A stretch of 64,000 nt of DNA from Eubacteriales bacterium (GCA_045580085.1 JAZNND010000018.1:1783-65782), one strand, 5' to 3'; shown: positions 39,893 to 59,969, counted from the first letter of the stretch. Numbers and translations: made by a program. Notes: generated by a model not told the origin, from the letters alone.

Positions 39893-40378
39893 TTAAGTTT
39901 TCAAATCATTGATTTGTAAAAGAGATTTTTCGTCTACAATTACCACAAGTGTTTTTTCATATTGGGTGAGCACACCCATTTGAATCATGGTATAAAAACC
40001 TTTTTTCTCTTTGATGGCAGAAAAGAAGAGGGGGGAATCTTTTTTTCTCTCTTCTACGGCTTGGTTCATATCAATGCCGTCCTCGTCTTTCACGTGGCGC
40101 AAAAGAAAGTTTATTTGTTGGGAGGAAAGATTCTCGGCTAAATCAATGATTTCTTGCTCCGAGAGTGATTTTTGGGAAAGCGGGGGAGCAAGAAAGGCGC
40201 GGTCAAAGGAAAGATTGCTCTCCTCCTCTACCCAACCGCGCGTGACGGCGTAGCGAAGCATTTCCGTGGCTTCCTCAAAAGGAATGCCGTAAATATGTTG
40301 CAACAGTGGGGTAGAAACATACGGATATTTTTGGTACACTTCGCACAGTATTTGATGAAATTCATGGATGGTTTTCAT
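39893..40378 (-). CDS. Small hypothetical protein, N-terminal winged-helix resembling FtsK-gamma (tentative)
   Basis: YPYVSTPLLQHIYGIPFEEATEMLRYAVTRGWVEE resembles the FtsK gamma-domain pattern (ST..LQR...IGY.RA.R.....E..G.V). Last gene of the minus operon. Confidence 0.35.
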   Translation of the reverse strand: MKTIHEFHQILCEVYQKYPYVSTPLLQHIYGIPFEEATEMLRYAVTRGWVEEESNLSFDRAFLAPPLSQKSLSEQEIIDLAENLSSQQINFLLRHVKDEDGIDMNQAVEERKKDSPLFFSAIKEKKGFYTMIQMGVLTQYEKTLVVIVDEKSLLQINDLKT

Positions 40379-40432
40379 AGGTGTACCTTTCTGAATGGTT
40401 GATTCCCTTGGAAATGAACCCCTATTTGGTGT

Positions 40433-42178
40433 TTATCTTGCCCAAGAGAGATCGTATTTATAGCGCGCGTCCGAAAAATCAACGGGTGCTTTGCGGAATG
40501 CCGCGTTGTCACCTTGGTAAAACTCGGGGCAAAGATAGCTTCTCTCGGCAAAGGAGAGAAGAACATCGCCGCGCATTTGGGTGACGAAAAATTCTCCGAT
40601 GGCAAGCTTACCGAGCTTGCTGACGGGCACCAAAGGAACCTCAACCGATTGATAGTTTTCGATTTGGCCCGATCTGCCGTTGAGGGCGGAAAGGGGAGAG
40701 AGCACGGTGTGTCTGCCGCATTCCTTGGAAAAGGCTTCCTTCGTTTCATGGTTGTTGGAGCCGAAATAAAGGTGCATGTTGAGGTTGTCGATGATAATTT
40801 CCGCCGTCTCTTTGCCGTATACGCGATAGAGCTGGGCGTAAGACTGCACCACAAGCATAAACCAGATGTTTCGGCTTCCGCATGCCGAGATGACGTTTTC
40901 GAAGCTCGAAAATTTCGGGAAGTTACCGAACTCATCCAGCAAGAAATAGAAGGGGCGTTCGAGTCTGCCGTCTTTCTTACGCGCCGAGTCGATCAATCCG
41001 AGATAAAGATCGGAGAAGAAGAGGCTTATGACTTGATAGTGAAGCGCGTCCTCATCCTTATAGGAAACGTAAATGACCGTCGGACGCTCGTCATCCGCCA
41101 AAGAAGGGATATCGAAGGTGTTCGCGCAGGTCAAACGGCTGACGCATGCATCCTTAAAGGGTTTCATTTTGGCGAGGAAGGAAGAAATGATACAGCTTCT
41201 CGTGACGTTGGCGGAAAGCTTGACGATGCTGGTCTCCACCAAACGGCGTGCCTTGGAGGTGTTGATGTTGCGCCCCACGAAATAATCGTGGTCGTCGAGT
41301 TCGTTGTTCGAGGATGTGAAGGAGGCGAAAATAGCGGAAACCGTTTCAAAGGAATAAGTATCCTCCGTGATCAAAGGTCTGCCGCCGCGATCGGCTTTGG
41401 GATCGCTGTCCTCAAGCATTGCCCAAAGGAAGCCCTCAAGCATGGTTGCCGCCATTTGTTCCCAATAAGGATCGCTGTCTTTCAAAACGGGGCAAACTGC
41501 CTCGCCGATGGAGATGATGGCGTTATCCACCTCGGTATAAAGCGCGTCGCGCACCTCATCGATGGCGCGTGTAAGAGCCGGGCGGCTGTTGTAGCGTTCG
41601 CCGCGGAATACGTGGAAATAGCTGCCGTTTTCCTCTTCGGTCTTGACTTCTTTGGAGACGTTCAGGTATTCTTGGTACTTGCGGTAAATCTTAGTCAACG
41701 GATTCCAACAGTCCGAACGCAGATAATTGATAAAATCGAGTACGATCACGCGATAGCCGTTGTCCTCAAAGGTTTTGTGCGTGCCGCGGTAGAGCTCACC
41801 CTTGGGATCGCTGAGCACGATGGAGGGTTTGTTTTTCTTTAGCGGCATCAGGTTGAGGAAGGGAAGCACGAAACCGGTGCTTTTGCCCGAGCGCGTCGCG
41901 CCCACAACGAGGGCGTGAATATCATCCGTAAAGGTGGCGCAAAGCTCGCCTTCCGTGTTACGCTTGACGCAAATGGGAAAACCATTGATCTCTTTGCCCT
42001 TAAGCTCGGAATAACGGTAGGTGCGCTCGGCGTTTTTGATCTGGTAATCGTTTGCCGTGATCAGCTTCGCGTTTTCCTGGTCCTCATAAAGCGGCACGTA
42101 ATTGCCGAGCACCGTTACAAAATCCTGTTCCTTTTTGGGCGTTTTATCGACGTATTGATTTAAAAGTTTATTTAACAT
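40433..42178 (-). CDS. VirD4/TraG/TraD-type (type IV coupling protein-like) P-loop ATPase without TM segments
   Basis: ATG 42178 lies 8 nt after GGAGG and overlaps the upstream stop by 11 nt. Walker A VVGATRSGKST. Walker B YFLLDEFGNFPKF followed by FMLVVQSYAQLYRVYG. No hydrophobic helix in the first 100 aa. Confidence 0.75.
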   Translation of the reverse strand: MLNKLLNQYVDKTPKKEQDFVTVLGNYVPLYEDQENAKLITANDYQIKNAERTYRYSELKGKEINGFPICVKRNTEGELCATFTDDIHALVVGATRSGKSTGFVLPFLNLMPLKKNKPSIVLSDPKGELYRGTHKTFEDNGYRVIVLDFINYLRSDCWNPLTKIYRKYQEYLNVSKEVKTEEENGSYFHVFRGERYNSRPALTRAIDEVRDALYTEVDNAIISIGEAVCPVLKDSDPYWEQMAATMLEGFLWAMLEDSDPKADRGGRPLITEDTYSFETVSAIFASFTSSNNELDDHDYFVGRNINTSKARRLVETSIVKLSANVTRSCIISSFLAKMKPFKDACVSRLTCANTFDIPSLADDERPTVIYVSYKDEDALHYQVISLFFSDLYLGLIDSARKKDGRLERPFYFLLDEFGNFPKFSSFENVISACGSRNIWFMLVVQSYAQLYRVYGKETAEIIIDNLNMHLYFGSNNHETKEAFSKECGRHTVLSPLSALNGRSGQIENYQSVEVPLVPVSKLGKLAIGEFFVTQMRGDVLLSFAERSYLCPEFYQGDNAAFRKAPVDFSDARYKYDLSWAR

Positions 42179-43772
42179 TGCCAAAGCCTCCCCATATACC
42201 GATCTTGGTTTCCGAGCTCTTCGCTGTGTCCTCAAGCATCTTTTCCGTGATAACAAAGCGGTCCTCGCCCGCACGGTGCGCGAGCAGAGCATGCTCGATC
42301 ATTTGTTCCGCCGCGCTTGCCGTTTGTTTCAGCAAAAGCTTGCGCGCGGCAGCGTTCAGTTCTACGGCACTTAAGGAGAAGAAACGCGCGGTGTCCGTGA
42401 GAATCTTATCAAGTGCCGCTTCGGCTTCCGATTCCTTGATGCTTTCCAAGATAACCGTATCCGAAATGAGGGTAAGCTTATGATCGGGTTTTTCATGCGC
42501 AAGCATCACCGTGACAACGTTTCCGAGGTCCAGCGTGTAGCCGGAGGCGGTGACGTAACGCTTTGCCGTATCGCTTTTGAGGATGGTGGAGAGAGACATA
42601 ACCTCATTTTCGCCGAGTGCTTCGCATTTTTCAAAAAAGAGCAGGGGCGCGTTTTCTCCGATGCCGTCCAAGGTGCGTAATACCGCATCCTCTAAATGAA
42701 TGCCGCCGTGCCCGGAAAGGTCGATGGAGCCGTGGCCGCGTTCGCTGTAAGCGCGGATGATGCGGTCCTTATATTCACGCAGCATCACATCGTCCTTGGC
42801 GATCAGCAAAAGCGGGCGTTTGCGCGCCGAAAGGCGGTAAAGCAGGTTGTTTTCGATCAAGCTTTCCTCTCTTTCGCGTACAAAAGTACCGGTCGGAAGC
42901 TTTTTGGCGCAAAGCGGAACGCTTTGCTTGGTGATACCGAGGGGCAGGTTGCGGGGGTATTGCTTGGGATCGGTGAGAATCAGCTCACGCTTGGAGTCCT
43001 CGGTCAAAACGGTGGAGTCAATGATGGAGAGCGTGCTGGCGGTCAAAGAGGCGCGGTCAAGCACCTTTCTTTCGAAGGCATCCTCCAAAGCTTCCACCAC
43101 AGGGGAAGTTTGCACGGCGGGAAGCTCGTAGACGGTTTGCAAATATGTATATACCTCTTTTTCGCCGCGGTGCGAGAGCATCGAGCAAAGGCGAACGGCA
43201 CACTCTTCTTTTTTCTCGGGGAAATGGGAGATGGCAAGAAGGATCGCCATGGGAGAGTTCCAGCGCACGGCATTCCAAAGCTTGGCTTCGCTCTCTTCCT
43301 GTTCGGTTTCGGAGAGAAAGCCCTCCAAGGAGAGAAACGCCAGCAAATCGGAGGCGGCGATATGCCCTTCGGCACCGGCTTTTTCGAGACTGTAAAGCGT
43401 ATAGGTGATCTCAAAGGGCGAGTCCTTCTCAAAAATAGGATCGCGCTTGAGAATGGCTTGCTGTTTGAAGGAAAGAATGCCCGAAAGGGTAGAGGTGATG
43501 CCGTCGTAAAGCTCGGCGCAGCGCAAAAGGCGGTTCATGTCCTCTCCCGTAATGGCACTTCTGGCAAGATCGTGCTCGGCGGCGGTGAAGCAGGCATCAA
43601 GAAAATCCTCTTCGGTTACGGTAAATAAGCGCGCGTAGCGGTCAAAAACCTCGCGTCTGCCTTCACGCGTCAGCGAGACACCGACCGTTGCGTCAAAGAA
43701 AAAGTATTCGTATAAGAATTCGCGCTTTAAAAATTCAGGTGTTTTTTCCGCGCGGATGTTTCGTTGTTTCAT
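42168..43772 (-). CDS. Hypothetical 534-aa protein, translationally coupled to the T4CP-like ATPase
   Basis: Long ORF with coding-like composition. No Walker motifs or other signature recognised. Confidence 0.5.
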   Translation of the reverse strand: MKQRNIRAEKTPEFLKREFLYEYFFFDATVGVSLTREGRREVFDRYARLFTVTEEDFLDACFTAAEHDLARSAITGEDMNRLLRCAELYDGITSTLSGILSFKQQAILKRDPIFEKDSPFEITYTLYSLEKAGAEGHIAASDLLAFLSLEGFLSETEQEESEAKLWNAVRWNSPMAILLAISHFPEKKEECAVRLCSMLSHRGEKEVYTYLQTVYELPAVQTSPVVEALEDAFERKVLDRASLTASTLSIIDSTVLTEDSKRELILTDPKQYPRNLPLGITKQSVPLCAKKLPTGTFVREREESLIENNLLYRLSARKRPLLLIAKDDVMLREYKDRIIRAYSERGHGSIDLSGHGGIHLEDAVLRTLDGIGENAPLLFFEKCEALGENEVMSLSTILKSDTAKRYVTASGYTLDLGNVVTVMLAHEKPDHKLTLISDTVILESIKESEAEAALDKILTDTARFFSLSAVELNAAARKLLLKQTASAAEQMIEHALLAHRAGEDRFVITEKMLEDTAKSSETKIGIWGGFGNVK

Positions 43773-43816
43773 TGGCGTTAATTCCTTTCGTTTTAGGATG
43801 TTATGTAAACAATGGT

Positions 43817-44419
43817 TTACGAATTTTCATATTTTGAGATGTCATACGCCTTCGGATTGGCATCAATCACACGGTCAATCAAACCGTAGGCGCAGGCATC
43901 GGCGGCACTCATGCGGTTGTCGCGGTCGGTGTCGATGCGGATGGTTTCAATGGGTTTGTCGGTGTTGCGGGAGAGAATGGTGTTGAGCTGTTCTCTCGTG
44001 CGGCGAATGCTTTCGGCGTAATTGAGAATATCGCTTGCCTGCCCTTGGGTGCCGCCGAGGGGCTGATGGATGAGCACCTCGCTGTTGGGAAGTGCCTCAC
44101 GCTTGCCGCGCGTTCCGGAGGAAAGGAGAAACGCGCCCATGCTCGCCGCCATACCCATGCAGACGGTGCGGATATCCGCTTCCACCAAATTCATGGTGTC
44201 GTAGATGGCAAGCCCTGCCGAAACCGATCCGCCGGGGGAATTGATGAACATGGTGATCTCGCGCTGTTCTCTCGGAATACCGTCCTTTTTAAAGCGGTAA
44301 TCAAGGAATAAGAGCTGTTTGATGATGAGATTGGCTACCTCGTCATCGATGGGCCCGAGCAGGGTAATGATATTGTTTTCCACAAAAAAGCTTTCGGAAA
44401 GTTTTTCGGACGTTTTCAT
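43817..44419 (-). CDS. clpP: ClpP-family serine protease paralogue (S14)
   Basis: INSPGGSVSAGLAIYDTM, catalytic Ser in GMAASMGAFLL, His in LIHQPLGG and Asp region DTDRDNRMSA. The N-terminal axial-loop segment is not recognisable. Confidence 0.85.
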   Translation of the reverse strand: MKTSEKLSESFFVENNIITLLGPIDDEVANLIIKQLLFLDYRFKKDGIPREQREITMFINSPGGSVSAGLAIYDTMNLVEADIRTVCMGMAASMGAFLLSSGTRGKREALPNSEVLIHQPLGGTQGQASDILNYAESIRRTREQLNTILSRNTDKPIETIRIDTDRDNRMSAADACAYGLIDRVIDANPKAYDISKYENS

Positions 44420-44451
44420 GGTTGTATCTCCTTTGTTCTTTTTACATTTTA

Positions 44452-44481
44452 ATTATACAGCAAAAATAAGGTTTTTGGCAA
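44452..44481 (-). promoter_or_regulatory. Candidate internal promoter for clpP and downstream genes (TTGCCA-18-TATAAT on minus strand)
   Basis: Minus-strand TTGCCA = 44476-44481. TATAAT = 44452-44457. Confidence 0.5.
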
Positions 44482-44516
44482 GAAAAACAGATTATTTTTC
44501 CGACTTTTGTTTTTTT

Positions 44517-44538
44517 ATTTTTCAAGTTTTCTTGAAAA
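44517..44538. promoter_or_regulatory. 22-nt element ATTTTTCAAGTTTTCTTGAAAA (palindrome TTTTCAAG-N4-CTTGAAAA), copy 1
   Basis: Identical over all 22 nt to 52835-52856. It lies just downstream of the Doc-like stop and about 75 nt upstream of the clpP -10. Confidence 0.8.
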
Positions 44539-44550
44539 CGGTAAGCAAAC

Positions 44551-44916
44551 TTACCTCGCGTTGCTTTCAAGCCATTCGCCCAAGGCGAAAATCCCCTCCT
44601 CCGTGGGTGAAAAAGAGAGCATCTCTTTGGTGTTTTGTTCGGTAGGGGGCAGGCTTAAGCCGTTGAGTTCAAGCAGTGTCAAGGCGCAAAGCACCGCCAT
44701 GGCACGGTTATGGGTGGCAAAGGGCTTTTTTTCCGCGATGTCCGCGCACAGTTTTGCGGCGCGCAAAAACACGGTGCGGTAGTAAAGATGCTCTCCGTCC
44801 TTGGTGGACCATGCGGCGGAAAAAATATCCTTCAAAAGAGAAAGATTTGTTTTTCCCGACTGCCCGTGCAACGTTTCGTATAAAGAGGCGGCTTGCAAAT
44901 AGGTGATCTTGTTCAT
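44551..44916 (-). CDS. Degenerate Doc/Fic-fold protein (death-on-curing-like, catalytic motif substituted)
   Basis: VFLRAAKLCADIAEKKPFATHNRAMAVLCALTLLELNGLSL aligns by eye with Doc ...ATARGHIFNDANKRTALNSALLFLRRNGV. KPFATHNRA replaces HIFNDANKR. Confidence 0.45.
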   Translation of the reverse strand: MNKITYLQAASLYETLHGQSGKTNLSLLKDIFSAAWSTKDGEHLYYRTVFLRAAKLCADIAEKKPFATHNRAMAVLCALTLLELNGLSLPPTEQNTKEMLSFSPTEEGIFALGEWLESNAR

Positions 44917-44926
44917 AGGCTTTCCC

Positions 44927-47035
44927 TTAATTCAGTTTTTTAAGATAGCCGTCGGCGTTTTCGTAGACCGAGGCGGCGGTTGCGGCAAAAATATCGTTGC
45001 GAATGACCGTTTCGGCGCACAGCGCGTCTCCCGATAAAAGCTTTTCAAAATAGCGGATGAGCGCATCGCGGCTCTTATTTGTTTCCACATCCGCAAACCA
45101 ACCGAGGCGCGCACGCGGCAGCGGCGGCGCGTTGCCGCCTGCGGTATAAACAACCGAAACGCTGTCGCCTGCTTGTAGTTTATGCGAGAAGGGAACCTCC
45201 TTGCCGTTGACCGAGATGCGGTAGGTTGTGAGTGCCGCTTTGGAGCTGACAGCGAAGGAAAGATCGAGTGCCGTCGCACCGACGGGAAGGCTGTATACAT
45301 CCCCCGCATCGGTCGTCACACGGATCATTTTTCTTTCGTCAAGCAAAACGGAAGAATCCGAAAGCGACTCGCCGAAGCGCGCGTACATGTAGCTTTTTAA
45401 GGTGGTGACGAAAAGCTCCACGCGGTTTTCGTAGGCATCGGCAAACAGCAAGCGGTACTGACCGAGGGGGCTGTCATAGCGGATGTCCTCGATCAAAAAG
45501 GCGGGGGAAAGCTCCGCGGCGTAGGCATCCATAAACAGACGCATGAATTTGCCGATGTTCTCTTCGGGAGAGTCGGTTTTGGGTGTCAGAATAAGATAGA
45601 GCTTTTTTAACATCACCGTGCGCTTAGTGATGGGTGTTTCGTAGCTCTTGCGCTCACTTTCGGTAAATCCCATGCGCTCAAAATACGCCTCTTTGGCAAA
45701 GGAGGAACGCTCCTTGTAGGCATCGAGGATTTCGATGAGCTCTTTTACGGAATAGTCCGCCGTGCGGTAATCCACCGAAAAGCCGTGTCCGCGCAGAGCT
45801 CCCACCGCCGTCTTTAACGCGTCAAAAAACGAGGTAAATTCAATGCTGTTGCGGTGCACGAGCTTGCGGTAAGCATTGTGAATGGCGTGGTAACGGGTGG
45901 GTTCTTCGATTTTTAGAATCTCGCTTTCGATGGCGTAGGAAAGATCCTCTAATCGGAAGGATCGGAAAAGGGGCAGGTAGATTTCTTTGGTTTGGCTTAT
46001 CTTGGTATACTTGGCGGTGCGGTCGAGCGCGTCAAGCGTGCGCAGGTTAACCAATCGGTCCGCCGCCTTGATATAGAGCCCTGCGATCAGGCTCGGACGG
46101 GATTCGATGCTTTGCCTTAAAGCGTCGGCATAGATTTTTTCAAGCTCCCCCTCCGCGCCCGATGTGATGATTTCTCTGCCCGAAAGGGGCGAGATATCGC
46201 TTTTCATGGAGCTGATGTGGGTAACAGCTCCCACATAATCACGGATGTTTTCGGTAAAATCACGCCCAACGTCCGAAAGGGTGTAATCGGTTTGCTCAAT
46301 GGTGTCGTGCAAAAGTGCGGCGGCAAGGGTTTCGGCGTTAACCTTGTATCCGAGCAGTAAAAGCGCGACCGACAGCGGATGGAAAATATAAGGCTCGCCG
46401 GAGCGACGCTTGACGTCGCCGTGCAAAGCAAGCACTTTTTCATAAGCATGCTTGACGTGAACGGCGTTTTCACCGCCGAGTTCGGAGCGCACATGGCGCG
46501 TCAGATGTTCGAAAAGCCGTTCCGCCGCATGGCGAAAAATGCGGTTGTCGATGCGCTCACAGCATTCTTCGCAAGTGCTTGCGGATTTTTCGGCTCCAAA
46601 GAGCTCCGCCATGCCGCTTCCGTACGCTTCTTCGAGATCCTCTTTGCTCAGCGTATAGCGGAAGGTGCCCGCAGGAGCTTCGCACAAGGGCAAAAGCAGA
46701 GCCGCCGCGATCTCTTCAAAGGTGCCATAGGCGCGCGTGGCGATGAGAAATGCCATTTGTGCGCGGTAAACGGAATACGGTACGGGATGCGCCGCGAGGC
46801 TTGGCGCGTACATGCGCTCTTTGGGTACGGTTTTGTCGGTATAATATTCTTCGAGAGAGGCGAAAAGGGAAGCGAGTGCCTCACGCTTGCGCGCGATATC
46901 GGTGCTGACGTGAAAAATATCCTCTGCGTGCTCGGCATGCTCGGTCAAGCGCGTAAATTCGTTTTCGGTGAAGGCGGCGAGAATTCTTTCCTCATACTCC
47001 GCCCGATCTTCGGACAAAAAATAGGATTGTGGCAT
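44927..47035 (-). CDS. Rel/SpoT-homologue-like protein: intact-looking HD hydrolase domain, degenerate synthetase-like region, TGS domain, novel N-terminus
   Basis: RRSGEPYIFHPLSVALLL...AALLHDTIEQT...KAADRLVNLRTL (HD domain). TGS: IRVTTDAGDVYSLPVGATALDLSFAV...ISVNGKEVPFSHKLQAGDSVSVVYT. The synthetase EVQIRT motif reads ELFVTT. Confidence 0.7.
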   Translation of the reverse strand: MPQSYFLSEDRAEYEERILAAFTENEFTRLTEHAEHAEDIFHVSTDIARKREALASLFASLEEYYTDKTVPKERMYAPSLAAHPVPYSVYRAQMAFLIATRAYGTFEEIAAALLLPLCEAPAGTFRYTLSKEDLEEAYGSGMAELFGAEKSASTCEECCERIDNRIFRHAAERLFEHLTRHVRSELGGENAVHVKHAYEKVLALHGDVKRRSGEPYIFHPLSVALLLLGYKVNAETLAAALLHDTIEQTDYTLSDVGRDFTENIRDYVGAVTHISSMKSDISPLSGREIITSGAEGELEKIYADALRQSIESRPSLIAGLYIKAADRLVNLRTLDALDRTAKYTKISQTKEIYLPLFRSFRLEDLSYAIESEILKIEEPTRYHAIHNAYRKLVHRNSIEFTSFFDALKTAVGALRGHGFSVDYRTADYSVKELIEILDAYKERSSFAKEAYFERMGFTESERKSYETPITKRTVMLKKLYLILTPKTDSPEENIGKFMRLFMDAYAAELSPAFLIEDIRYDSPLGQYRLLFADAYENRVELFVTTLKSYMYARFGESLSDSSVLLDERKMIRVTTDAGDVYSLPVGATALDLSFAVSSKAALTTYRISVNGKEVPFSHKLQAGDSVSVVYTAGGNAPPLPRARLGWFADVETNKSRDALIRYFEKLLSGDALCAETVIRNDIFAATAASVYENADGYLKKLN

Positions 47036-47047
47036 TTTATCACCCCG

Positions 47048-48154: not shown

Positions 48155-48205
48155 AGCAGGTTCCTCGTTTCAACATTTTTTGACAAAAGACAAGAATACA
48201 GTATG

Positions 48206-48234
48206 ATTATAACAGTCAATCGGATGTTTGTCAA
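48206..48234 (-). promoter_or_regulatory. Perfect consensus promoter for the minus operon (TTGACA-17-TATAAT)
   Basis: Minus-strand TTGACA = 48229-48234, 17-nt spacer, TATAAT = 48206-48211. About 50 nt upstream of the ATG at 48154. Confidence 0.7.
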
Positions 48235-48347
48235 GGCGTTTTTTCAAGAAAATTATAAAAATCAAGCTTTTTTAAACATTAAGAGATCTAAAGCTCGTCT
48301 CTGAAAAGAAAAACAAAAGGAAAAATCGTCTTTTTCTCCCAAGTCTC

Positions 48348-48376
48348 TTGACAAGTAAGGAATGCGGTGATATAAT
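48348..48376 (+). promoter_or_regulatory. Perfect consensus promoter, plus strand (TTGACA-17-TATAAT), distal P1
   Basis: TTGACA 48348-48353. TATAAT 48371-48376. The CTTGAAAA half-site at 48380-48387 overlaps the expected transcription start. Confidence 0.65.
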
Positions 48377-50164: not shown

Positions 50165-50178
50165 GCCGAAGGGAAAAA

Positions 50179-51579: not shown

Positions 51580-51624
51580 TACTTTGCATTATTCCTGCTT
51601 TTATAGAAAGGAAAAGTCATAAAC

Positions 51625-52825: not shown

Positions 52826-52834
52826 CGAATTCAC

Positions 52835-52856
52835 ATTTTTCAAGTTTTCTTGAAAA
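52835..52856. promoter_or_regulatory. 22-nt element ATTTTTCAAGTTTTCTTGAAAA, copy 2
   Basis: Identical to 44517-44538. It lies 12 nt after the transglutaminase-like stop, about 76 nt upstream of a TACAAT (52920-52925) and about 100 nt upstream of the helicase ATG. Confidence 0.8.
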
Positions 52857-52953
52857 AATAATTTTGTAAATTTCGGAAAGTTTACCGTTTCCCCTCTTAA
52901 AAAAACGAGGAGAATGCGATACAATAGAGACAGAAAAGGAAAGGGGTGCCAAG

Positions 52954-55900
52954 ATGACCGTTCGAGATTATATTCTTTCACAAGTGAAGAAAACCAGAGA
53001 CACCATGCGAAGCGACAGCTTCAGCGATCTTTGCGGCTTGACGGTCGCTTTGCGCGGCAAGACGGTTTCTTCGGTTCTTTCCATCCTCTCCTCCTCTCTC
53101 AAAGCGGCGGTGGAGCTGGTGGATCCCGCACTGGTGACCTCGGGTGCCGCCGATTATGGGGCGGGAGAGATCGTCAGTGCCGCACACGCTTTCTGTGCGG
53201 ACGATCCCGTGGTATGGGTGGACGGCAAGATCTTTTTTGCCACGGAGGACGGCAGCTATTGCACCCCCGATGAATATCATTATCTGAAGGAAAACACCTT
53301 GGTGGAGCGCGCCGTGTTCGGCGCGTCGCGCCATCCGATCTACGGTCTTGCCGCCACCTTCAAACGTTTGATCCGCGCGGCTTCCGAAGCGCAGGCGGAT
53401 AAAGCCAAGGAGATTTTATACCTGACCGTCGGCTCGGCGCAGTGGACGGACAAGAAGAAAAGCACCAAGACGCGTATCCACAAGAGCCTCGCGCCGCTGT
53501 TTACCATGCATATCGAGCCTGCCGGAAAAGGCACGCTTGCCTTCCGCGCGACCGCGGCGGGGGTGTTTTTCCGCATCAATACCGTTTTTCGCCGCGATCT
53601 TATTGGGCAATACGAGGCGGATATTTACGAAGGGATTCCCGATGAACCCCTTTCTCCCGAGGCACTTCTCTCGGCATTGGAGCAGGTTTGCCGCCGCGCC
53701 GAGGAACTGCTCGGCGACCGTATACGCATGGATAAGGACGCGCTTTTCTTGACCTTGCTCGATTCTCAATACGAGGCGATCTGTCAAAAGATCGAGGCGA
53801 ATATCGACGCGCTCGCCGCCTCTCCCTTGGCTTGCCTTTTAGCGGGAGAAAAAAGCGGATTTCGGGCGCAAGAGCCGCAGGACGGGCTTAGTGTGATCTA
53901 CCCCTTGACGGCGGATGAAAGCCAAAGAGCCGTAATCGGTGCCTCCCTTTCGGGCAAAAGCGTGTTTGCCTCGGCTCCTGCCGGTACGGGTAAATCCCAA
54001 ACTGCTGTCAACATTGCCGCCAACACCGTTTTGCGCGGCGGAAATGTTTTCGTGCTCAGCGAAAAGCTTGCCGCGAACGATGTCTTTTTGCATTACAGCG
54101 AACGCATCGGGCTCTCGCCTTTTTGCCTGAGTGTTGACAATAAAATGAGCATCGACAGCCTCATCCGCGCCGTAGAGCGCGTGGCGGCACTTCCGTCCCG
54201 CTATGTCAAGAGCGATACGGCAAAGCTTGCCGTGGATGCCTATCACCGTTCTTGCGCCGCGTATGAACGCTTGAATGCCAAACTCTACTTTCCCATAGAA
54301 GAGCTCGGCGGCGTTTCTCTTTACGACTTGATCGCGCTCTCCTCCTCTTCGCCCGCGCTCTCCCACACCGAAGGGCTTTTCGCCGGCAAAGAGCAATACG
54401 AAAGCGCGCTTTCTCTCCTTTCGGAGCTTGAAGAGGGGCTTCTCTCCCAAATGACCGACGCGGAATTTGATGCCTACTTCTCTACGGGCGAAAGCGGCGA
54501 CGGCGAGCTGGATATGCTTTTAGGGCATTTATGCCAAAGAATGCTTGAAAAAGGGATAAATTGCAAAGAACTTTTTGCAAATAATCGACTTTCCCGTCAG
54601 AATGCCGTGCCCTCCGTTCGCGCGGAAATGGCAAGGGCGCAGGCTCTTTCCTACACCGAGATGTGGGGGCTTTCGGACACGGGCGAGAGATGTGTGCGCA
54701 AGATCTTCCGCGAGCTTTTGGAAAACGCCCTCAAAATGGAACAGCTGTATGCCGATCTTTTGACGCAAACGCTTTCTTTGCGTGCAAAACAGGCACCGAC
54801 GGCGAAACTGCTTTCTTTGCTCTCGGATGCCAAGAAAGCCAAAATTCCCGTGGGTGAATTTTTCAAACAAAACGCCGAAGCATTACGAGAGGTCTTTCCC
54901 GTGATCGTTTCCACCCCCATGCCCGCCGTCAACTATTTACACGGTACGGGGCTTGACCGCTTTACGGTCATGACGGTGGACGAGGCATCCCAAATGCCCA
55001 TCGTTGCCGTTTTGCCCTTCCTTGACCGTGTGGAGCGTTTGGTGGTGTTCGGCGACGAAAAACAGCTTGCCATCATCAACACCTTTGCCAAGGCGGAGAA
55101 AACCGTCTCCACCGATTACGACGAACGCGTTGCTGCCGCCAAAAACTCGGTGCTTGACGCGGTGCGCGGCAAGGAGAGCGAAGAGGGCTTCTTTGCGGGG
55201 GCACTTCGCTACCACTACCGTTCCAAAACCGAAATGCTGGTGCATGTTTCGAATGAAAGATGCTATAACGGCTCTTTGCAAGTCGTTCCCGACGTGGCGA
55301 CCTCAAGGCGTTATCTTGCGCCTTACATGGGGCTTTCTCTCATCGAGGTTGCCGACCGCGCCCATCCGCCCGTTTTGCTCCGCGACGGAGAGAACGTGAC
55401 CGAGGCGCAAGCCATCGTGCGCGACGTCGGAGAGATGAAACGGCAATATCCCGAACGCTCCGTGGGTATTATCACCCTCAATGAAAAACAGCAAAACCTG
55501 ATTTTGGACCGATTGGAGGAGGCGCATCTTGAGCCTTCCGCGGATCTTTGGGTGCGCTCGCTCGACAACGCGCAAGGAAAGGAAGCGGATTTCGTTTTTA
55601 TCAGCATCGCTCATGCCGAGCGCAAGGATAACGGGGAGCTTCGCCTTGCCGTTTCGACCTTCAACCGTGAGGGCGGAGAGAACCGACTCAACGTGCTTTT
55701 CACCCGTGCCGCTTACCGCGCCGCGGTTTACATTTCTTTTGATCACAAGGAGCTTTTGAAGAGCGACAACCCGCGCATCCGTCTGCTTTACGAGTATTTG
55801 CACTATGCGAAAGAAGGGGAACTCAACGAGCGTCCTTCTTTAAGCCTGCCGTCGGCGGACGAGGCGTTGGTTTCGGCGGTTTCGGGCATGGTTTCTTCGC

Positions 55901-56613
55901 TCCTTCCCACCTTGGAGGGCTCCGCGCGCATCGGAAGCGAGAGCGTTTCGGTCGACATTGCCGTGAAGGAAAAGGACGCGGAGCGTTATGCTTTGGGGCT
56001 TCTCATGCCTTCGGGCGGACAGTCAGCCGCCGCCGCCGTCACCAAGATGATGACGTTAGAGCGCGCGGGGTGGAGCCTTTTACCTCTTTCTCCCACCTAT
56101 TTTCTGGCGCGTCATGCGCAGTTTGCGACACAGCTCAAAAAGAGCTTGCAAGCCGAAAAGACGGAAAAAAAGGAAAGCGAGGTTTCCTTTTTGACCTGCC
56201 GCGCACCCAAAGAGCTTTTTGTGCCCGCTATGTTGGAGGACTTCCTCTTTTCCGATAAACCCATCGATGACGCCGCCGTCTTGAAGCTTCCGCTTAAGGA
56301 GATTTACACCCGCGTGTTGCGGGAGAATTTGATCTCGATGGAGGAACATGAGCTTGCCGCTTTGGTGCGCCGCGGCGACAAGGAGGCACTTCTCGCCTCT
56401 TTCGTGCGTTACGTGCCTTATTACATTAAGCAAGGCAGCTTGCAAAAGATAGTCAGCGGTGTCAACAGCCTTTACGTGGCAAGCAAGGAATACCGCGCAG
56501 GGCTTCTTTTGGCGGTGCTTTTGCGCAACGGTCCTAACGCCGAGGAACCCATCACCAAGCGCATCATACAAGACCTGATTGCCGAAGCCAAGGACCTTGG
56601 GCTCGGCTATTAA
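52954..56613 (+). CDS. Large SF1B (Upf1/DNA2-like, AAA_11/AAA_12) helicase, 1219 aa
   Basis: Walker A SAPAGTGKSQT, Walker B VMTVDEASQM, FGDEKQL, SLDNAQGKEADFVFIS and motif VI RLNVLFTRAAYR. About 330-aa N-terminal and about 300-aa C-terminal regions are unassigned. Confidence 0.8.
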   Translation: MTVRDYILSQVKKTRDTMRSDSFSDLCGLTVALRGKTVSSVLSILSSSLKAAVELVDPALVTSGAADYGAGEIVSAAHAFCADDPVVWVDGKIFFATEDGSYCTPDEYHYLKENTLVERAVFGASRHPIYGLAATFKRLIRAASEAQADKAKEILYLTVGSAQWTDKKKSTKTRIHKSLAPLFTMHIEPAGKGTLAFRATAAGVFFRINTVFRRDLIGQYEADIYEGIPDEPLSPEALLSALEQVCRRAEELLGDRIRMDKDALFLTLLDSQYEAICQKIEANIDALAASPLACLLAGEKSGFRAQEPQDGLSVIYPLTADESQRAVIGASLSGKSVFASAPAGTGKSQTAVNIAANTVLRGGNVFVLSEKLAANDVFLHYSERIGLSPFCLSVDNKMSIDSLIRAVERVAALPSRYVKSDTAKLAVDAYHRSCAAYERLNAKLYFPIEELGGVSLYDLIALSSSSPALSHTEGLFAGKEQYESALSLLSELEEGLLSQMTDAEFDAYFSTGESGDGELDMLLGHLCQRMLEKGINCKELFANNRLSRQNAVPSVRAEMARAQALSYTEMWGLSDTGERCVRKIFRELLENALKMEQLYADLLTQTLSLRAKQAPTAKLLSLLSDAKKAKIPVGEFFKQNAEALREVFPVIVSTPMPAVNYLHGTGLDRFTVMTVDEASQMPIVAVLPFLDRVERLVVFGDEKQLAIINTFAKAEKTVSTDYDERVAAAKNSVLDAVRGKESEEGFFAGALRYHYRSKTEMLVHVSNERCYNGSLQVVPDVATSRRYLAPYMGLSLIEVADRAHPPVLLRDGENVTEAQAIVRDVGEMKRQYPERSVGIITLNEKQQNLILDRLEEAHLEPSADLWVRSLDNAQGKEADFVFISIAHAERKDNGELRLAVSTFNREGGENRLNVLFTRAAYRAAVYISFDHKELLKSDNPRIRLLYEYLHYAKEGELNERPSLSLPSADEALVSAVSGMVSSLLPTLEGSARIGSESVSVDIAVKEKDAERYALGLLMPSGGQSAAAAVTKMMTLERAGWSLLPLSPTYFLARHAQFATQLKKSLQAEKTEKKESEVSFLTCRAPKELFVPAMLEDFLFSDKPIDDAAVLKLPLKEIYTRVLRENLISMEEHELAALVRRGDKEALLASFVRYVPYYIKQGSLQKIVSGVNSLYVASKEYRAGLLLAVLLRNGPNAEEPITKRIIQDLIAEAKDLGLGY

Positions 56614-56628
56614 AGAAAGGAGTTGCTT

Positions 56629-57960
56629 ATGTTATCGTTACATGAATCCGATGCTGCGCGCGCCGAACGCAATTATATTTTGCCCGAGGGCACGCGTGTG
56701 GCGGGAACGGGCGGCTCCTTTTATACCGTGCGCTCTCTTTTGAGCAACGACACGGGGCAAGCCAATGTCTACACCGTTGAAAAGGACGGAGAGACTTATG
56801 TTTTGAAGCTTTTCTTCCGCAAGGGGGAGGAGGAGAATCGCGCGATTCTCTCCCAAATTGCCATATTGATGCGCCGCGGCGAGGCGAGCGATGCTTTTGT
56901 TACGCCTTTGGAGACTGTGGAGCATGAGGGAAGAGTCGGATATGTGATGGAATACGTCGGAGAAGAGTACATCGATGGCATCTTCTTGATCAACGGCATC
57001 GGCGGCGATATTCAAAATCAAGTGCCCTTTGCCGTTAAGCTGACGGTTTTGTACGGACTTTCCGAGGCGGTGAGTGCTTTGTTTAACGCCGGGCTTGCCT
57101 TGATGGATCTCAAACCCGAAAATGTGAAATTCAATCCCTATACGGGTGCTGTGAAGATTCTCGACACCGACACCATCGTTGCCAGCGGTTCTAGGGGCTT
57201 TGTGTTTGGCACGCCGGGGTATATGCCTCCCGCCGTGATGCGCGGCGAGGAGGAGCCTGACCGATATGCCGATTGCTATGCTTTGGCGGTGATTATCTTT
57301 TTGACGCTTTTCCGTTTTCATCCCTTGGAGGGCAAGGCGGACGAAAAAGAGCTTGACTCGGACCGCTATGAATATTTGTACGCCACGCATCCCGTGTATG
57401 TTTTTCATCCGAGCGATTTTTCCAACCGACCGACCGACGCGTGCGCCATGTATGAAAGGCGGTATTTGCGCTATCCCACCTTTTTTACCGACGGTTTTTT
57501 ACGTACCTTTGTGTATGGGCTTTCGGAGAGAAAGGAGGAACGCACCACCCCCGAGGAATGGTGCGGACTGATCGAAAGGCTTTACGAAGCCTCCTTTCTG
57601 TGCACGGTGTGCGCAGAGGAGCAGTTTATCGAGAGAGAGGATACGGTTTTTTGCGAGGTGTGCGGAGAGCCTTTGGTCAAGCCTCTTCTTTTGGAAGGGG
57701 ATAAGGCGGTGCCTTTATATCTCGAAAGTGAGATCAAGGAGAGCGATCTTTGCTTTGCCCCTTTGACCGACCGCACGCTTTTCCGCGTGGTTAAGACCGA
57801 GTACAGCGGAAAGTTCGGGCTTATGACACTGCATTCGGCCTTGCGCCTCTTATTCGATGACGGCAAAATCGTTTCCTTTGAAAAAGGAACGGTGGCACCC
57901 TTGTTTTTGGGGGTGCGCTACCTCTTTGAGGATAAAGAATTGATATTGCGACAGATATAG
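56629..57960 (+). CDS. Ser/Thr protein kinase (non-RD) with C-terminal Zn-ribbon and beta-rich domain
   Basis: ATG 56629 lies 6 nt after AAAGGAG. GTGGSFYTV loop, YVLKLF Lys, catalytic loop MDLKPENV, ILDTDT, GTPGYMPP. CTVC-x14-CEVC ribbon. Confidence 0.8.
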   Translation: MLSLHESDAARAERNYILPEGTRVAGTGGSFYTVRSLLSNDTGQANVYTVEKDGETYVLKLFFRKGEEENRAILSQIAILMRRGEASDAFVTPLETVEHEGRVGYVMEYVGEEYIDGIFLINGIGGDIQNQVPFAVKLTVLYGLSEAVSALFNAGLALMDLKPENVKFNPYTGAVKILDTDTIVASGSRGFVFGTPGYMPPAVMRGEEEPDRYADCYALAVIIFLTLFRFHPLEGKADEKELDSDRYEYLYATHPVYVFHPSDFSNRPTDACAMYERRYLRYPTFFTDGFLRTFVYGLSERKEERTTPEEWCGLIERLYEASFLCTVCAEEQFIEREDTVFCEVCGEPLVKPLLLEGDKAVPLYLESEIKESDLCFAPLTDRTLFRVVKTEYSGKFGLMTLHSALRLLFDDGKIVSFEKGTVAPLFLGVRYLFEDKELILRQI

Positions 57961-57978
57961 AAAGTGAGGAAATGAATC

Positions 57979-59007
57979 ATGAAAACCTTTGTGACACGCG
58001 GCTCAACCGTTACCCGTCCGAGAGAAAACGTCAGACGGGAAAGTGAGGTCAGAAAACCGCTTTATTTTGCCTTCATCGTTGACACCTCGGGCAGCATGGG
58101 AGACCGTGTGCAGGTGGCAAGCGAGAAAGCGGGCAGTTATGAAACCACCAAAATCGCCGAGCTCAACGAAGGCTTGACGAAAGCAATTGAGAGCTTGCGC
58201 GAATTTGAGACCAAAAACAGCCAGTTCAAGGTGTATTTTGAGGTCATCGAGCTCAATTCCTACGGCAAAGCGCTTTTTCCCGAGGGCTTCATTCCCCTTG
58301 CCGACCGCGATGTGAGCGTGGAGCTTACCGCAAAAGGTGCGACCTGCCTTGAAAACTCGCTCAATACCTTGATGAAATATCTGACGCCAAACTACATGCC
58401 GGGGTGCAACCGCGCGGTCAACGTGATTTTGATGTCCGACGGTCAGCCCACCGATGTGGACGGCTATTTCCTCACACCCGAGCAATACACCGACACCCTC
58501 AAAAAGTTCAAGAATTACCTCGCACAAAAGAACCTCAAACGCAATGTGGATCTTTATTCCATCGGTGTCAGCGGTGCATGCGAGGAAATGTTGACGCTTT
58601 TCGCGGACGAGGGAAAATATTATAAGGTAGAAAAAAGCGACTCTTTGGCGAGCTGGATCGATCATGTGACGCGTGTCAGCTTCAAGCGTTCCTCCGCGCC
58701 CGAAGGACTCTTCCGTCCGTACGGCGGCGCGGCATCGGCAACGCCGAGTGCGGTTCGTTCCATCCCCTCGGCACCTGCTCCGCAGCCTGCCGCACCTTCC
58801 GCTTCCGGCATTAAAAAGACGGTGGATCTTACCCGTTGCGCCAAGGGAGAATGCCTTGCTTGCATGGATGCCTGCCCGAAACACGCCATTTGCTACGCCA
58901 ACGGCTTGGTGGCGGTGGATGAATCGCTTTGCGACGGATGCGATGTCTGTCTTTCCTCTTGCGCACAAGGCGCGATTGTGGATATCGCGGCGCTTCCGTT
59001 CGGTTGA
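57979..59007 (+). CDS. von Willebrand factor A (vWA) domain protein fused to a 2x[4Fe-4S] ferredoxin-type domain
   Basis: MIDAS motif FIVDTSGSMGD and ILMSDGQPTD. C-terminus CAKGECLACMDACP...CDGCDVCLSSC. A Pro/Ala-rich linker lies between the two domains. Confidence 0.8.
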   Translation: MKTFVTRGSTVTRPRENVRRESEVRKPLYFAFIVDTSGSMGDRVQVASEKAGSYETTKIAELNEGLTKAIESLREFETKNSQFKVYFEVIELNSYGKALFPEGFIPLADRDVSVELTAKGATCLENSLNTLMKYLTPNYMPGCNRAVNVILMSDGQPTDVDGYFLTPEQYTDTLKKFKNYLAQKNLKRNVDLYSIGVSGACEEMLTLFADEGKYYKVEKSDSLASWIDHVTRVSFKRSSAPEGLFRPYGGAASATPSAVRSIPSAPAPQPAAPSASGIKKTVDLTRCAKGECLACMDACPKHAICYANGLVAVDESLCDGCDVCLSSCAQGAIVDIAALPFG

Positions 59008-59042
59008 TTTGGGGCTTTTGCACAGAAAGGAATCTTAGATTT

Positions 59043-59969
59043 ATGGAACATATCACCGTAAACGCTTTGAAGGTCACGGGCTTTCGTAAAAAAGAGACGG
59101 GAGGCGGATGCGAGGATGCCTTGAAGGTTCTTCCGTTTTCGAAAGGGCAGATTCTTGCCGCCGCCGACGGGCATGGAGACTTGCGCTGTAAATACGCGTC
59201 TGTCGGGGCGGCGTTGGCGTGCGAAAGTGCTGTGAGGGTGCTTGCTTCCTATGCCGCACGGCTGGGGCGTCGCTCCCCGTCGGAATTTTGGAATGAGAAC
59301 CGAAATGCCATCGCGAAAGAGATTATGCTTTCCTTCCGCCATGCCGTTTTGGATGATTTTACCGCGCGATACCCCGATTACGCTTCCGAAAAAGAACGCT
59401 TGCACGGGCTCATCGATGCCTCTTTTGAGAGGGAAAAGGTGGTTCTCGGCGCGGAAAACGCCGAAAGGGAAGCCAAGCGCGCCGATAGAGACCGTTTATC
59501 CAAAATCGTTTTTCTCTACGGCACCACGCTCAGAGCTTCGGTTTTGAGCGAAGGCTATGTTTTTAATCTCGCCGTCGGAGACGGCGATACCGTGGCACTC
59601 CTTGCAAACGGCGAAGCGGTTTGGCTGATTCCCAAGGGCGAAGCCTTTGATACCCGTACGGAATCCATGTGCGAAGAGCCGCGTACGCTCCTTGAATGTT
59701 TTTATTTTTCCTTTTTGCCTTTAAAGAGCCGCAAGAAAACGGAGGACTCTTTTGACTTATGCACCCTCGTGCTTTGCACCGATGGGTTGCGCAATTCCTT
59801 TTTCTCGGATACGGGCTATACCGATTTCCTCTTTTCGGCATCGAAAAGGCTTAAGGAACGGGGCAAGAGCTACACGCGCACCTTGAGACGGCGTTTGGAG
59901 ACTCTGACGCGTAACAGCTGTTATGGGGACGACATCACTCTTTTGATGGCTTATAAGGAAGAAATGTAA
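59043..59969 (+). CDS. PP2C-family Ser/Thr phosphatase
   Basis: ATG 59043 (the listed ORF starts at 58929). AADGHGD, LVLCTDGL and YGDDITLLM motifs. Confidence 0.75.
   Translation: MEHITVNALKVTGFRKKETGGGCEDALKVLPFSKGQILAAADGHGDLRCKYASVGAALACESAVRVLASYAARLGRRSPSEFWNENRNAIAKEIMLSFRHAVLDDFTARYPDYASEKERLHGLIDASFEREKVVLGAENAEREAKRADRDRLSKIVFLYGTTLRASVLSEGYVFNLAVGDGDTVALLANGEAVWLIPKGEAFDTRTESMCEEPRTLLECFYFSFLPLKSRKKTEDSFDLCTLVLCTDGLRNSFFSDTGYTDFLFSASKRLKERGKSYTRTLRRRLETLTRNSCYGDDITLLMAYKEEM

Follow-up and report, generated by a model that had tools for sequence, protein, structure and literature searches.

This study concerns a 20-kb block of 17 genes in an uncultured gut Clostridia genome (Eubacteriales bacterium, GCA_045580085.1, JAZNND010000018.1:1783-65782), located at positions 39,893 to 59,969 of the 64,000-nucleotide stretch of DNA that was analysed (hereafter, the window). 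The genes lie in two divergent arms and form four sets. Module A comprises an XRE-type regulator (m7), a RelA/SpoT-like HD and TGS protein (m6) and a degenerate Doc protein (m5). Module B comprises ClpP (m4), a pseudo-AAA+ protein with Sel1-like and Lon-type parts (m3), a VirD4-like ATPase without transmembrane (TM) segments (m2) and an FtsK-gamma-like winged helix-turn-helix (wHTH) protein (m1). Module C is a ubiquitin-like protein (Ubl) cassette of JAB (p1), E2 (p2), Ubl (p3), E1 (p4), a Prok-RING_1 E3 candidate (p5) and a transglutaminase-like protein (p6), and module D consists of a UPF1-like helicase (p7) and a TerY-P triad (p8-p10). On balance, the block is read here as a co-regulated composite of four separable modules and not as one obligate 17-gene machine. 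Modules A and B together are best read as a previously undescribed system of 7 (7-8) genes, sometimes joined by the helicase, which forms the evolutionary core of the island, and the Ubl cassette as an independently mobile module that was joined to it only in this lineage.

In other genomes the modules are found apart. A scan of one genome per GTDB species (185,579 species) yielded 131 confirmed relatives of m2, an ATPase of type IV coupling protein (T4CP) type, and 80 loci were kept. By tblastn and gene-order clustering, ClpP, an m3-like protein and the T4CP occur together in about 35 of these 80 loci, in gut Clostridia species with hosts including Oscillospiraceae, Acutalibacteraceae, Faecousia and Christensenella. 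The gamma-like wHTH gene is usually the next gene after the T4CP, and in approximately 30 GTDB species of gut Clostridia module B stands without any gene of modules A, C or D within 10 kb. In over 40 loci the cassette T4CPs, 41-60% identical, retain an unchanged set of three partners, and they are separated from the conjugative T4CPs, which lie at about 30%; T4CPs at that level of identity occur without ClpP. The T4CP family gave 1493 matches in gut Clostridia metagenomes, with identities of 48-100% among the 120 matches listed. Relaxase and type IV secretion system (T4SS) genes were found neither in the window nor in the more than 40 related loci, and plasmids (PLSDB) contained no close relatives of either cassette, with T4CP relatives at most 30% identical. 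A phage origin was rejected, as viral contigs (IMG/VR) gave no E2 relatives and only T4CP relatives of at most 35% identity. Additionally, a sister T4CP clade (L046, L047 and L075; 41-42% identical) is without ClpP, has a gene for a protein of about 585 aa upstream and one of about 340 aa downstream, and may represent a ClpP-less variant of the cassette.

Modules A and B recur together in at least six other loci (L009, L010, L151, L152/153, L154 and L155/156) in a divergent layout unlike that of the window: one strand bears the XRE, HD-TGS and Doc-like genes plus a fourth, variable gene, and the other the ClpP, pseudo-AAA+, T4CP and wHTH genes. Compared with the window, the T4CP of these loci is 53-58% identical and the XRE and HD-TGS proteins 22-28% identical, and the flanks are unrelated in each. 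In L151, a p7-type helicase (41% identical over 1089 residues) lies directly after the Doc-like gene, with no Ubl gene present. Modules A and B and the helicase thus stay linked through rearrangement, and no other comparative result speaks as strongly for their being functionally connected. In most of these loci the variable gene (for example, L152 2003-3364, L154 1862-3229 and L155 1662-3035) encodes a protein of about 455 aa that contains several hydrophobic segments and, in its C-terminal part, the motif HETRH (HExxH); because the helicase takes the position of this gene in L151, the position looks like a variable effector slot.

All four modules are found together only in the window's own clade, in four further loci (L001-L004). 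Three of these are from NCBI metagenome-assembled genomes: both arms are complete in L001, and L002 and L003 show as much of them as the fetched stretch or contig permits. The fourth, L004, is a metagenome contig that ends inside the E1 gene, and its T4CP, m3, HD-TGS and XRE proteins are 70%, 58%, 44% and 40% identical to those of the window. Outside the clade, none of approximately 40 ClpP-cassette loci has a Ubl gene. Conversely, a scan with a 6-sequence E2 alignment gave 57 metagenomic E2 loci, about 40 of which have JAB, Ubl and/or E1 genes, often with a Prok-RING_1 gene; ClpP, T4CP, HD-TGS, helicase and TerY-P genes were absent from all 57, including 11 of at least 15 kb. An earlier note, made from the sequence of the window, had described the block as a candidate novel system, an idea to be given up if the two operons never occurred together in other genomes. 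Beyond the window they occur together only in four loci of close relatives, so that the idea is refuted on this count only in a trivial sense; elsewhere it is the minus arm that recurs, sometimes with the helicase. That interpretation is consequently upheld in part: an obligate 17-gene unit is not indicated by these comparisons, and co-regulation within the clade is.

Co-regulation of the modules in this lineage is supported by a shared operator. As the earlier note reported, an identical 22-nt palindrome occurs once in each arm; its 12-mer core, TTTTCAAGAAAA, was additionally found abutting the -10 box at both divergent promoters. Four exact copies of TTTTCAAGAAAA are present in the 64 kb against 0.04 expected, a number reached in 0 of 100 shuffles, and all four fall within promoter-bearing intergenic regions of the island, one per promoter region. 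The 12-mer recurs with at most one mismatch at equivalent intergenic positions in L001-L004: at all four sites in L001, in the divergent region and upstream of clpP in L002 and L003, and upstream of clpP in L004. A search for a shared operator in L151 gave nothing convincing. The recurrence of the 12-mer in L001-L004 supports a common regulator within the window's clade. The regulator is most likely m7, since m7 is the only DNA-binding regulator travelling with the island.

The arms were called as 7 ORFs on the minus strand (39893-48154) and 10 ORFs on the plus strand (48631-59969), separated by gaps that are short or overlapping and diverging from a 476-bp region. ORF listing and translation thus agreed with the earlier inventory, the domain calls being confirmed by Pfam, NCBIfam and PADLOC, with catalytic and Walker motifs read by eye. 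The divergent region does carry promoters on both strands, each a perfect, TG-extended TTGACA-17-TATAAT of sigma-70 type. The description of the arms as two operons holds as far as two divergent arms are concerned; because the palindromes precede promoter-like sites of their own, ahead of clpP and the helicase gene, the island probably comprises four transcription units. The features of the block are collected in Table 1.

Table 1. Genes, promoters and other elements of the island, in window coordinates.
Feature	Position	Strand	Description
Left-border 18-bp perfect inverted repeat	39831-39848 / 39866-39883 (element 39831-39883)		Flanked by A/T runs
m1, 161 aa	39893-40378	-	Last module B gene; N-terminal wHTH of FtsK gamma type; no Pfam match
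m2, 581 aa	40433-42178	-	Soluble VirD4/TraG-type coupling-protein ATPase, FtsK/HerA superfamily; PF02534 1e-51, TraG-D_C 4e-28
m3, 534 aa	42168-43772	-	Sel1-like helical N-domain, disordered linker, Lon/Clp-type AAA+ fold; no Pfam match
m4, 200 aa	43817-44419	-	ClpP paralogue; PF00574 8e-67; Ser-His-Asp motifs present
Promoter-like site	44481-44452	-	TTGCCA-18-TATAAT; preceded by the 22-nt palindrome; position kept in L001-L004
22-nt palindrome / operator copy	44517-44538 (element 44452-44538)		Minus arm, ahead of clpP
m5, 121 aa	44551-44916	-	Degenerate Doc/Fic-like; Fic 0.039; DOC_P1 3e-4 (under cut-off); PHROG Doc-like 3e-6
m6, 702 aa	44927-47035	-	RelA/SpoT homologue; HD_4 2.6e-18, TGS 2.4e-8
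m7, 368 aa	47048-48154	-	XRE-type helix-turn-helix (HTH_3 6.7e-5) and about 300 aa without recognised fold; candidate island regulator
Divergent control region	48155-48630		Two perfect extended -10 promoters, one operator 12-mer abutting each
Promoter	48234-48206	-	Perfect TTGACA-17-TATAAT with TG extension; promoter scan
Operator 12-mers	48241-48252; 48376-48387		Each abuts a -10 box
Promoter	48348-48376	+	Perfect TTGACA-17-TATAAT with TG extension; promoter scan
p1	48631-49245	+	JAB/JAMM peptidase; PF01398 5e-7; HTHPx6SGTD motif by eye; predicted to process and remove Ubl
p2, 172 aa	49242-49760	+	E2; classical HPN and catalytic Cys (YHPNWFRNGNWC); PDB UBC 4.5e-4
p3, 92 aa	49782-50060	+	Ubl; YukD 6e-4
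Duplicated 57-nt unit, Ubl-E1 spacer	50108-50235		Two copies, 98% identical, 71 bp apart; window-specific local duplication
p4, 433 aa	50278-51579	+	E1; single ThiF adenylation domain (2.4e-46), Cys-rich C-terminal part
p5, 172 aa	51625-52143	+	N-terminal Prok-RING_1 domain, then Pro/Arg-rich tail
p6	52130-52825	+	Transglutaminase-like Cys peptidase fold; Transglut_core 8.6e-6; Cys, His, Asp present by eye
22-nt palindrome, second identical copy	52835-52856 (element 52835-52925)		Plus arm, ahead of the helicase gene; conserved in L001
Promoter-like site	52897-52925	+	TTAAAA-17-TACAAT; between palindrome and helicase gene
p7, 1219 aa	52954-56613	+	UPF1-like superfamily 1 (SF1) helicase; AAA_12 4e-16; AAA_11 and DUF4011 weaker
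p8	56623-57960	+	Ser/Thr kinase, TerY-P kinase type; Pkinase 2.5e-14; PD-T4-6 4e-11
p9	57979-59007	+	von Willebrand factor A (vWA) domain (MIDAS DTSGS) and 2x[4Fe-4S] ferredoxin-like C-terminus; VWA 4.4e-4, Fer4_6 1.9e-6, PADLOC TerY 0.0045
p10	59043-59969	+	PP2C phosphatase; PP2C_2 2.6e-20
Right-border promoter candidate	60002-60030		TTGCAC-17-TGgTACAAT; plausible by eye, under scan threshold

In module B, the ClpP paralogue m4 scores just under the NCBIfam ClpP cut-offs (218 against 308.6 for TIGR00493; 231 against 249 for PRK00277), as expected for a paralogue. Its neighbour is the pseudo-AAA+ protein, and ClpX, ClpA and ClpC are not adjacent. Assignment of m4 as a phage head-maturation protease was rejected, the ClpP models scoring about three times higher than the head-protease models. 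The neighbouring m3, formerly listed as a 534-aa protein of no assigned kind, can now be placed: in the PDB, a profile of 34 family members matched Sel1 repeats at 3e-7 and, at 3e-6, the Lon AAA+ module, and an AlphaFold2 (AF2) model with a confidence (pLDDT) of 67 shows an N-domain of helices joined by a disordered linker to an alpha/beta domain, with Lon (1.8e-5), ClpX, HslU and RuvB as the best Foldseek matches in the PDB. By eye, its Walker A and B positions read ..PLLLIAKDD.. and ..LLFFEKCE.. instead of GxxxxGK[ST] and hhhhDE; both motifs being replaced, m3 is regarded as a pseudo-ATPase. A hydrophobic-Gly-x-x-Gly-Gly motif is near-invariant in its disordered C-terminal tail, and a word-index search of 5.8e9 proteins returned only 7 homologues.

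The ATPase m2 more likely starts at 42178 (581 aa) than at 42292, judging from the gene calls in relatives. T4SS-DNA_transf, TrwB and TraG-D_C domains are recognised, as is the VirD4/TraG NTPase domain; the Walker motifs are intact by eye (A, GATRSGKS; B, LLDEFGN), and an N-terminal membrane anchor is absent. The NCBIfam CD1115 family model gave 236 bits against a cut-off of 250, and PADLOC a weak mad8 match. For m1, previously called wHTH-like, the family profile matched FtsK gamma (2j5p) at E 9.5e-4, and a further four FtsK chains, which refines it to a wHTH of FtsK gamma type.

Among the module A proteins, m7 had only 3 homologues among the same 5.8e9 proteins by word-index search, and its AF2 model was uninformative (pLDDT 43). 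The RelA/SpoT homologue m6 scored 145 bits against the TIGR00691 cut-off of 499; a (p)ppGpp synthetase domain was not matched (RelA_SpoT at E<=0.1), though HD and TGS are present, and the N-terminal ~195 aa are without domain assignment. In m5, the Fic motif reads KPFATHNRAMA in place of HxFx(D/E)GNGRxxR and thus deviates from that of Doc/Fic toxins; the catalytic His and the GNG have therefore been lost.

The arrangement of modules A and B was compared with described protein machines. As in ClpXP, ClpAP, Lon and the Pup-proteasome, a ClpP-family peptidase stands beside a Lon/Clp-type AAA+ fold with a flexible hydrophobic-Gly tail. In contrast to these machines, the AAA+ protein is without Walker A and B motifs, the sole active NTPase in the cassette is predicted to be the RecA-fold VirD4/FtsK-family protein, and the tagging system is confined to one lineage. 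m2 shares its ATPase domains and intact Walker motifs with the conjugative T4CPs (VirD4/TraG, CD1115); it differs from them in having no membrane anchor, no T4SS or relaxase neighbours and at most 30% identity to plasmid T4CPs, and in being always coupled to ClpP and the pseudo-AAA+ protein. Set beside FtsK/SpoIIIE, the m2 motor and the separate gamma-like wHTH of m1 together resemble a split FtsK. In line with the earlier note, no described system was found that combines ClpP, a T4CP-type ATPase and a Rel-like protein: PADLOC has no model for such a set and the literature searches returned nothing.

Within module C, the best PDB matches of p1 were AMSH-LP (1.9e-5) and the Rpn11-like chains 6fjv/6fju (3.5e-5), which we take to be CsRpn11 of Caldiarchaeum. 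Of 40 aligned members of the E2 family, only a few deviate from the motif HPNW..G.WC, and this family comprises 424 representative clusters among 1.84e9 representatives. The Ubl family profile aligns to ubiquitin over its full length. In an alignment of 28 Ubl sequences, the sole invariant C-terminal residue is Gly85, which is followed by 0-14 variable residues; the conjugating residue is therefore probably G85 and not a later GG, and p3 is predicted to conjugate through it. In the window the protein ends in ..RPKAG|FGGAILA, so that a 7-residue tail past G85 would need removal. The best PDB matches of p4 were eukaryotic Uba1 and SAE2 (4e-26), with Cap2 at only 2e-6. The Pro/Arg-rich p5, which had been described as a Zn-ribbon protein, belongs to the Prok-RING_1 family (PF14446), a model matched by 10 of 11 N-domains of the p5 family (best 1.7e-6); p5 of the window alone matches it at 0.019, short of the gathering score. 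An E3 candidate is thus part of the cassette. A p6-type gene also accompanies the Ubl cassette in L120.

The spacer between the Ubl and E1 genes, which holds the duplicated unit, is matched by L001 over its first ~70 nt only, and the gap in L002 and L003 is just 4 bp; its RNA folding was not significant (z = -1.9). Most other E2 loci have a small Zn-ribbon gene upstream of E1. The closest Ubl cassettes outside the clade (L091 and L093) each have two tandem Ubl genes, and L091 also has two E2-like ORFs. In L138 and L139, three tandem E2 paralogues lie around position 10001, with three small ORFs, themselves paralogous, after them; a JAB gene was not recognised in the vicinity and the gene-order window contains no ORF of the size of E1, and tblastn finds an E1-like stretch in L138.

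The earlier note had assigned this cassette to the ISG15-like or Bil type, an assignment that its gene order, HPN E2, Prok-RING_1 protein and eukaryote- or Caldiarchaeum-like E1 and JAB do not bear out. The cassette does share with Bil its separate Ubl, E2, JAB deubiquitinase (DUB) and E1 genes in one operon and a single beta-grasp Ubl with a conserved Gly followed by a removable tail, and, like the island, some operons of the Bil type are accompanied by a divergent XRE-type regulator (CapH). The 6d operons are presumably the systems later named Type I Bil. Their E2 lacks the classical histidine (Iyer et al. 2006). In Bil (Type I/II BilABCD; Millman 2022, Chambers 2023/24, Hör 2024), the gene order Ubl-E2-DUB-E1 is invariant, the E2 is of the CEHH type and the E1 is a multidomain protein with IAD, AAD and CYS domains (10.1101/2023.09.26.559546). 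The window instead has the order JAB-E2-Ubl-E1 and an HPN motif in p2, and the PADLOC Bil models did not recognise p1, p2 or p3. In p4, a 433-aa protein, one ThiF domain was recognised, and BilD matches about 60 residues at 6e-6.

The window cassette instead resembles the eukaryote-like E1-E2-RING-JAB-Ub operons of the Caldiarchaeum subterraneum type, which likewise have separate E1, E2, Ubl and JAB genes with a small RING-like protein and a Ubl precursor with a tail after the conjugating Gly. An HPN E2 with its Cys, an operon-encoded Prok-RING_1 protein, an Rpn11/AMSH-type JAMM peptidase and a Uba-type E1 are all present in the window. Because the gene order and E2 type differ from those of Bil and the eukaryote-like features are found, module C appears closer to this class than to Bil. 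It departs from the class in several respects: the order in the window's clade is JAB-E2-Ubl-E1-RING-TGL against Zn ribbon-E1-Ubl-E2-JAB-RING in most relatives, a Pro/Arg-rich tail replaces TM segments in the RING protein, there is an additional transglutaminase-like gene and the host is a member of the gut Clostridia. The literature searches found no characterised bacterial member of the eukaryote-like E1-E2-RING-JAB class. Burroughs, Iyer and Aravind reportedly described, in 2011, mobile bacterial 'tri-ligase' Ubl systems linked to Prok-RING_1. The window cassette would resemble these systems, as judged from the Pfam Prok-RING_1 matches and from citing papers.

In module D, the helicase p7 matched the PADLOC models for single-gene helicase defences PDC-S37 (2.8e-89) and Hhe (1.9e-47) over the helicase core only and not over the full length: its residues 585-1076 align to 854-1349 of 1550 in PDC-S37 and to 1339-1786 of 1911 in Hhe. 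The adjacent vWA, PP2C and Ser/Thr kinase genes conform to the TerY-P triad (Anantharaman 2012; Gao 2020). TerY-P kinases carry either a Zn ribbon (CoCoNuT type) or an OB fold (Gao type), and p8 is of the former kind, with CxxC..CxxC at residues 326-351 and weak Zn-ribbon matches at 321-354. The fusion of vWA and 2x[4Fe-4S] domains in p9 is not mentioned in the descriptions of TerY-P that were consulted; its ferredoxin-like domain could be a redox input. CoCoNuT systems of Types II and III-A combine a helicase with TerY-P and have a kinase with a C-terminal Zn ribbon (PMC10542128). As in those systems, the triad of the window adjoins a UPF1-like SF1 helicase; unlike in them, the CnuB/McrB GTPase, CnuC/McrC and the CnuE nuclease are absent among the 17 island proteins, so that the defining McrBC-type genes are missing.

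The left border is formed by a perfect inverted repeat that looks like a bidirectional terminator, in agreement with the earlier description; the promoter placed at the right border is plausible by eye and fell under the scan threshold. None of the 17 island proteins has a TM segment. The tRNA and Rfam scans of the window were empty, no border repeats were found around the island, and no relaxase, VirB4 or integrase gene occurs within it, in agreement with the earlier note as to integrase, tRNA and border repeats. The impression of a higher GC content was also borne out, the island having 52.3% and the remainder of the window 47.4%; the difference is modest, at about 1.6 standard deviations of 2-kb windows. 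Genes for BspA-type leucine-rich repeat (LRR) lipoproteins (39188-39814 and 61869-62846) bracket the island and three housekeeping genes. They were rejected as border repeats, having no DNA similarity and a protein identity of 48% over 113 residues only. The left one contains an internal 69-bp tandem repeat (39533-39670), and the contigs of relatives stop at most 140 bp past m1 (L001) or within the T4CP gene (L002); a repeat-rich LRR gene adjoining the island may disrupt assemblies there. In L004, a second T4CP paralogue (P0016; 12124-13869, 581 aa) shares 66% identity with m2 and is encoded immediately ahead of rnj, two genes downstream of the cassette.

Elsewhere, cassette B has as neighbours a CARF4-PD-DExK nuclease (2.8e-33), an IetA-like AAA+/M41 protein (3e-45) and RyR-domain proteins. 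The IetA-like protein, of about 1160 aa with ClpB-like AAA_2, FtsH-like AAA and M41 peptidase domains, recurs downstream of the ClpP cassette in L023 (10660-14130) and six other loci, and a YbjN-like pair also lies nearby. Both Bil-type Ubl systems (PMC11601603) and TerY-P-like triads with an OB-fold kinase (PMC10542128) have been reported to act in phage defence. From the neighbours of cassette B, the PADLOC matches of p7 and p8 and the precedent of TerY-P and Bil defences, a role in defence or conflict with phages or conjugative elements appears most likely by analogy.

Other explanations were weighed against a composite of modules. The earlier note had proposed a tag-and-degrade logic, in which Ubl-conjugated targets would be recognised and degraded by an assembly of m3, the T4CP-like ATPase and ClpP, an analogue of the ubiquitin- and Pup-proteasome routes. 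Such an integrated pathway would fit the presence of the same operator on both arms, the occurrence of the arms together in five loci across 40-70% protein identity, the beta-grasp TGS domain of m6 and the fold of m3, whose conserved disordered hydrophobic-Gly tail could dock on ClpP. Without a Walker A motif, however, m3 could not unfold substrates by itself, and Pfam, PADLOC and NCBIfam scans detected no Ubl-binding domain in m1-m7. Furthermore, the two sets never co-occur outside one clade, and in most genomes the ClpP cassette evidently works without Ubl and the Ubl cassette without ClpP. Because each cassette recurs without the other, these comparisons do not support tag-and-degrade coupling as an obligate design, and an integrated pathway of this kind is considered quite unlikely. 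The soluble T4CP could alternatively be an exapted coupling protein for plasmid exclusion, capturing relaxase-DNA or other T4SS substrates under guidance of the wHTH protein and passing them to ClpP via m3. Outside the cassettes, m2 is most closely related to VirD4-like proteins of the CD1115 family from conjugative plasmids of Firmicutes (27-30% identity). It has lost the membrane anchor, its gene is always found beside those for ClpP and the pseudo-AAA+ protein and usually beside that for a gamma-like wHTH protein, and relaxase and T4SS genes are missing from the vicinity. This anti-conjugation proposal is purely inferential, with no relaxase-recognition element identified, and T4CP-like ATPases also occur in phage-defence candidates, as the weak mad8 match illustrates; it is regarded as an unlikely explanation.

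A role outside mobile-element conflict, as a housekeeping or stress proteostasis regulon of the clade tied to the stringent response and DNA segregation, is given about the same low probability. The stable position beside rnj / gyrBA in the window, L003 and L004, the placement of the L011 cassette also a few genes from gyrB / gyrA, the lack of mobility genes and the Rel-like, ClpP and FtsK-like nature of the components would agree with it. The distribution is sparse for such a role (131 T4CP relatives among 185,579 species, with the ClpP cassette in about 35 of the 80 loci kept), the flanks vary among genomes, the neighbours are defence-like, m7 and close m3 relatives are extremely rare and m4 is under the ClpP equivalog cut-off. 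The T4CP homology, the GC content above that of the surroundings and the second T4CP paralogue in L004 could also indicate a decayed integrative conjugative element, with the T4CP as its surviving transfer gene and the rest as cargo. This explanation seems very improbable: relaxase, VirB4, integrase, tRNA and repeats are absent from the island, and the T4CP is intact, retains its three partners across the many cassette loci and is separated by the identity gap noted above from conjugative T4CPs.

For the favoured composite of four modules, the data show the domain identities, the module boundaries, the patterns of co-occurrence and the repetition and conservation of the operator; in the working model outlined next, we infer which protein is the regulator, what the proteins do biochemically, what they target and that they act in defence. 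A single regulator, with m7 of the XRE type the likeliest, would bind TTTTCAAGAAAA at the four promoter regions and thereby switch the modules together. Gly85 would be exposed by JAB trimming the tail of the Ubl, which E1, E2 and the RING protein would attach to target proteins. DNA or DNA-linked proteins would be engaged by the T4CP-like motor together with its gamma-like wHTH partner, ClpP and its pseudo-AAA+ partner would degrade some target, and the helicase with the kinase, vWA protein and PP2C would form a nucleic-acid-sensing branch. Several points weigh against this model. The defence role is drawn from neighbourhood and analogy, the island has no integrase, tRNA or border repeats, and its GC content differs from the rest of the window by 5 points only. 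The m1 end adjoins rnj in the window, L003 and L004, and the block could therefore be a vertically inherited physiological locus. A genuinely integrated system in this clade would agree as well with the shared operator and with a full block retained over divergence that reaches 40-70% protein identity (L004). The case for m7 as the operator-binding regulator is circumstantial, and each palindrome stands upstream of the -35 box of its promoter-like site at a distance of about 40 nt, whereas the divergent copies abut the -10 boxes, so that simple repression by one protein is not the sole reading.

Overall, modules A and B constitute a recurrent, undescribed system of 7-8 genes around ClpP and a soluble coupling-protein-type ATPase, and the system is frequent among gut Clostridia metagenomes. 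Should it serve in defence or against conjugation, bacterial immunity would gain a mechanism based on ClpP. More speculatively, and with a low probability in our estimation, cassette B could be a new class of ClpP machine in which an FtsK/T4CP-family translocase and not a Clp/Hsp100 AAA+ unfoldase selects and delivers the substrates, and which in the window's lineage would be wired to a eukaryote-like E1-E2-RING Ubl system by way of a common operator. Under such a scheme the substrates would be DNA-bound or relaxase-type proteins of invaders, and the pseudo-AAA+ protein would dock on ClpP by its hydrophobic-Gly tail. If this were true, the degradation of Ubl-tagged proteins would amount to an independently evolved bacterial ubiquitin-protease pathway. 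The classical HPN E2 and RING-like E3 candidate in a gut Firmicute represent a class outside the work on Bil and Bub, and bear on the origin of eukaryotic ubiquitination. With both sets apparently under one operator, the window's clade would provide a natural experiment on the coupling of Ubl tagging to ClpP degradation in bacteria.

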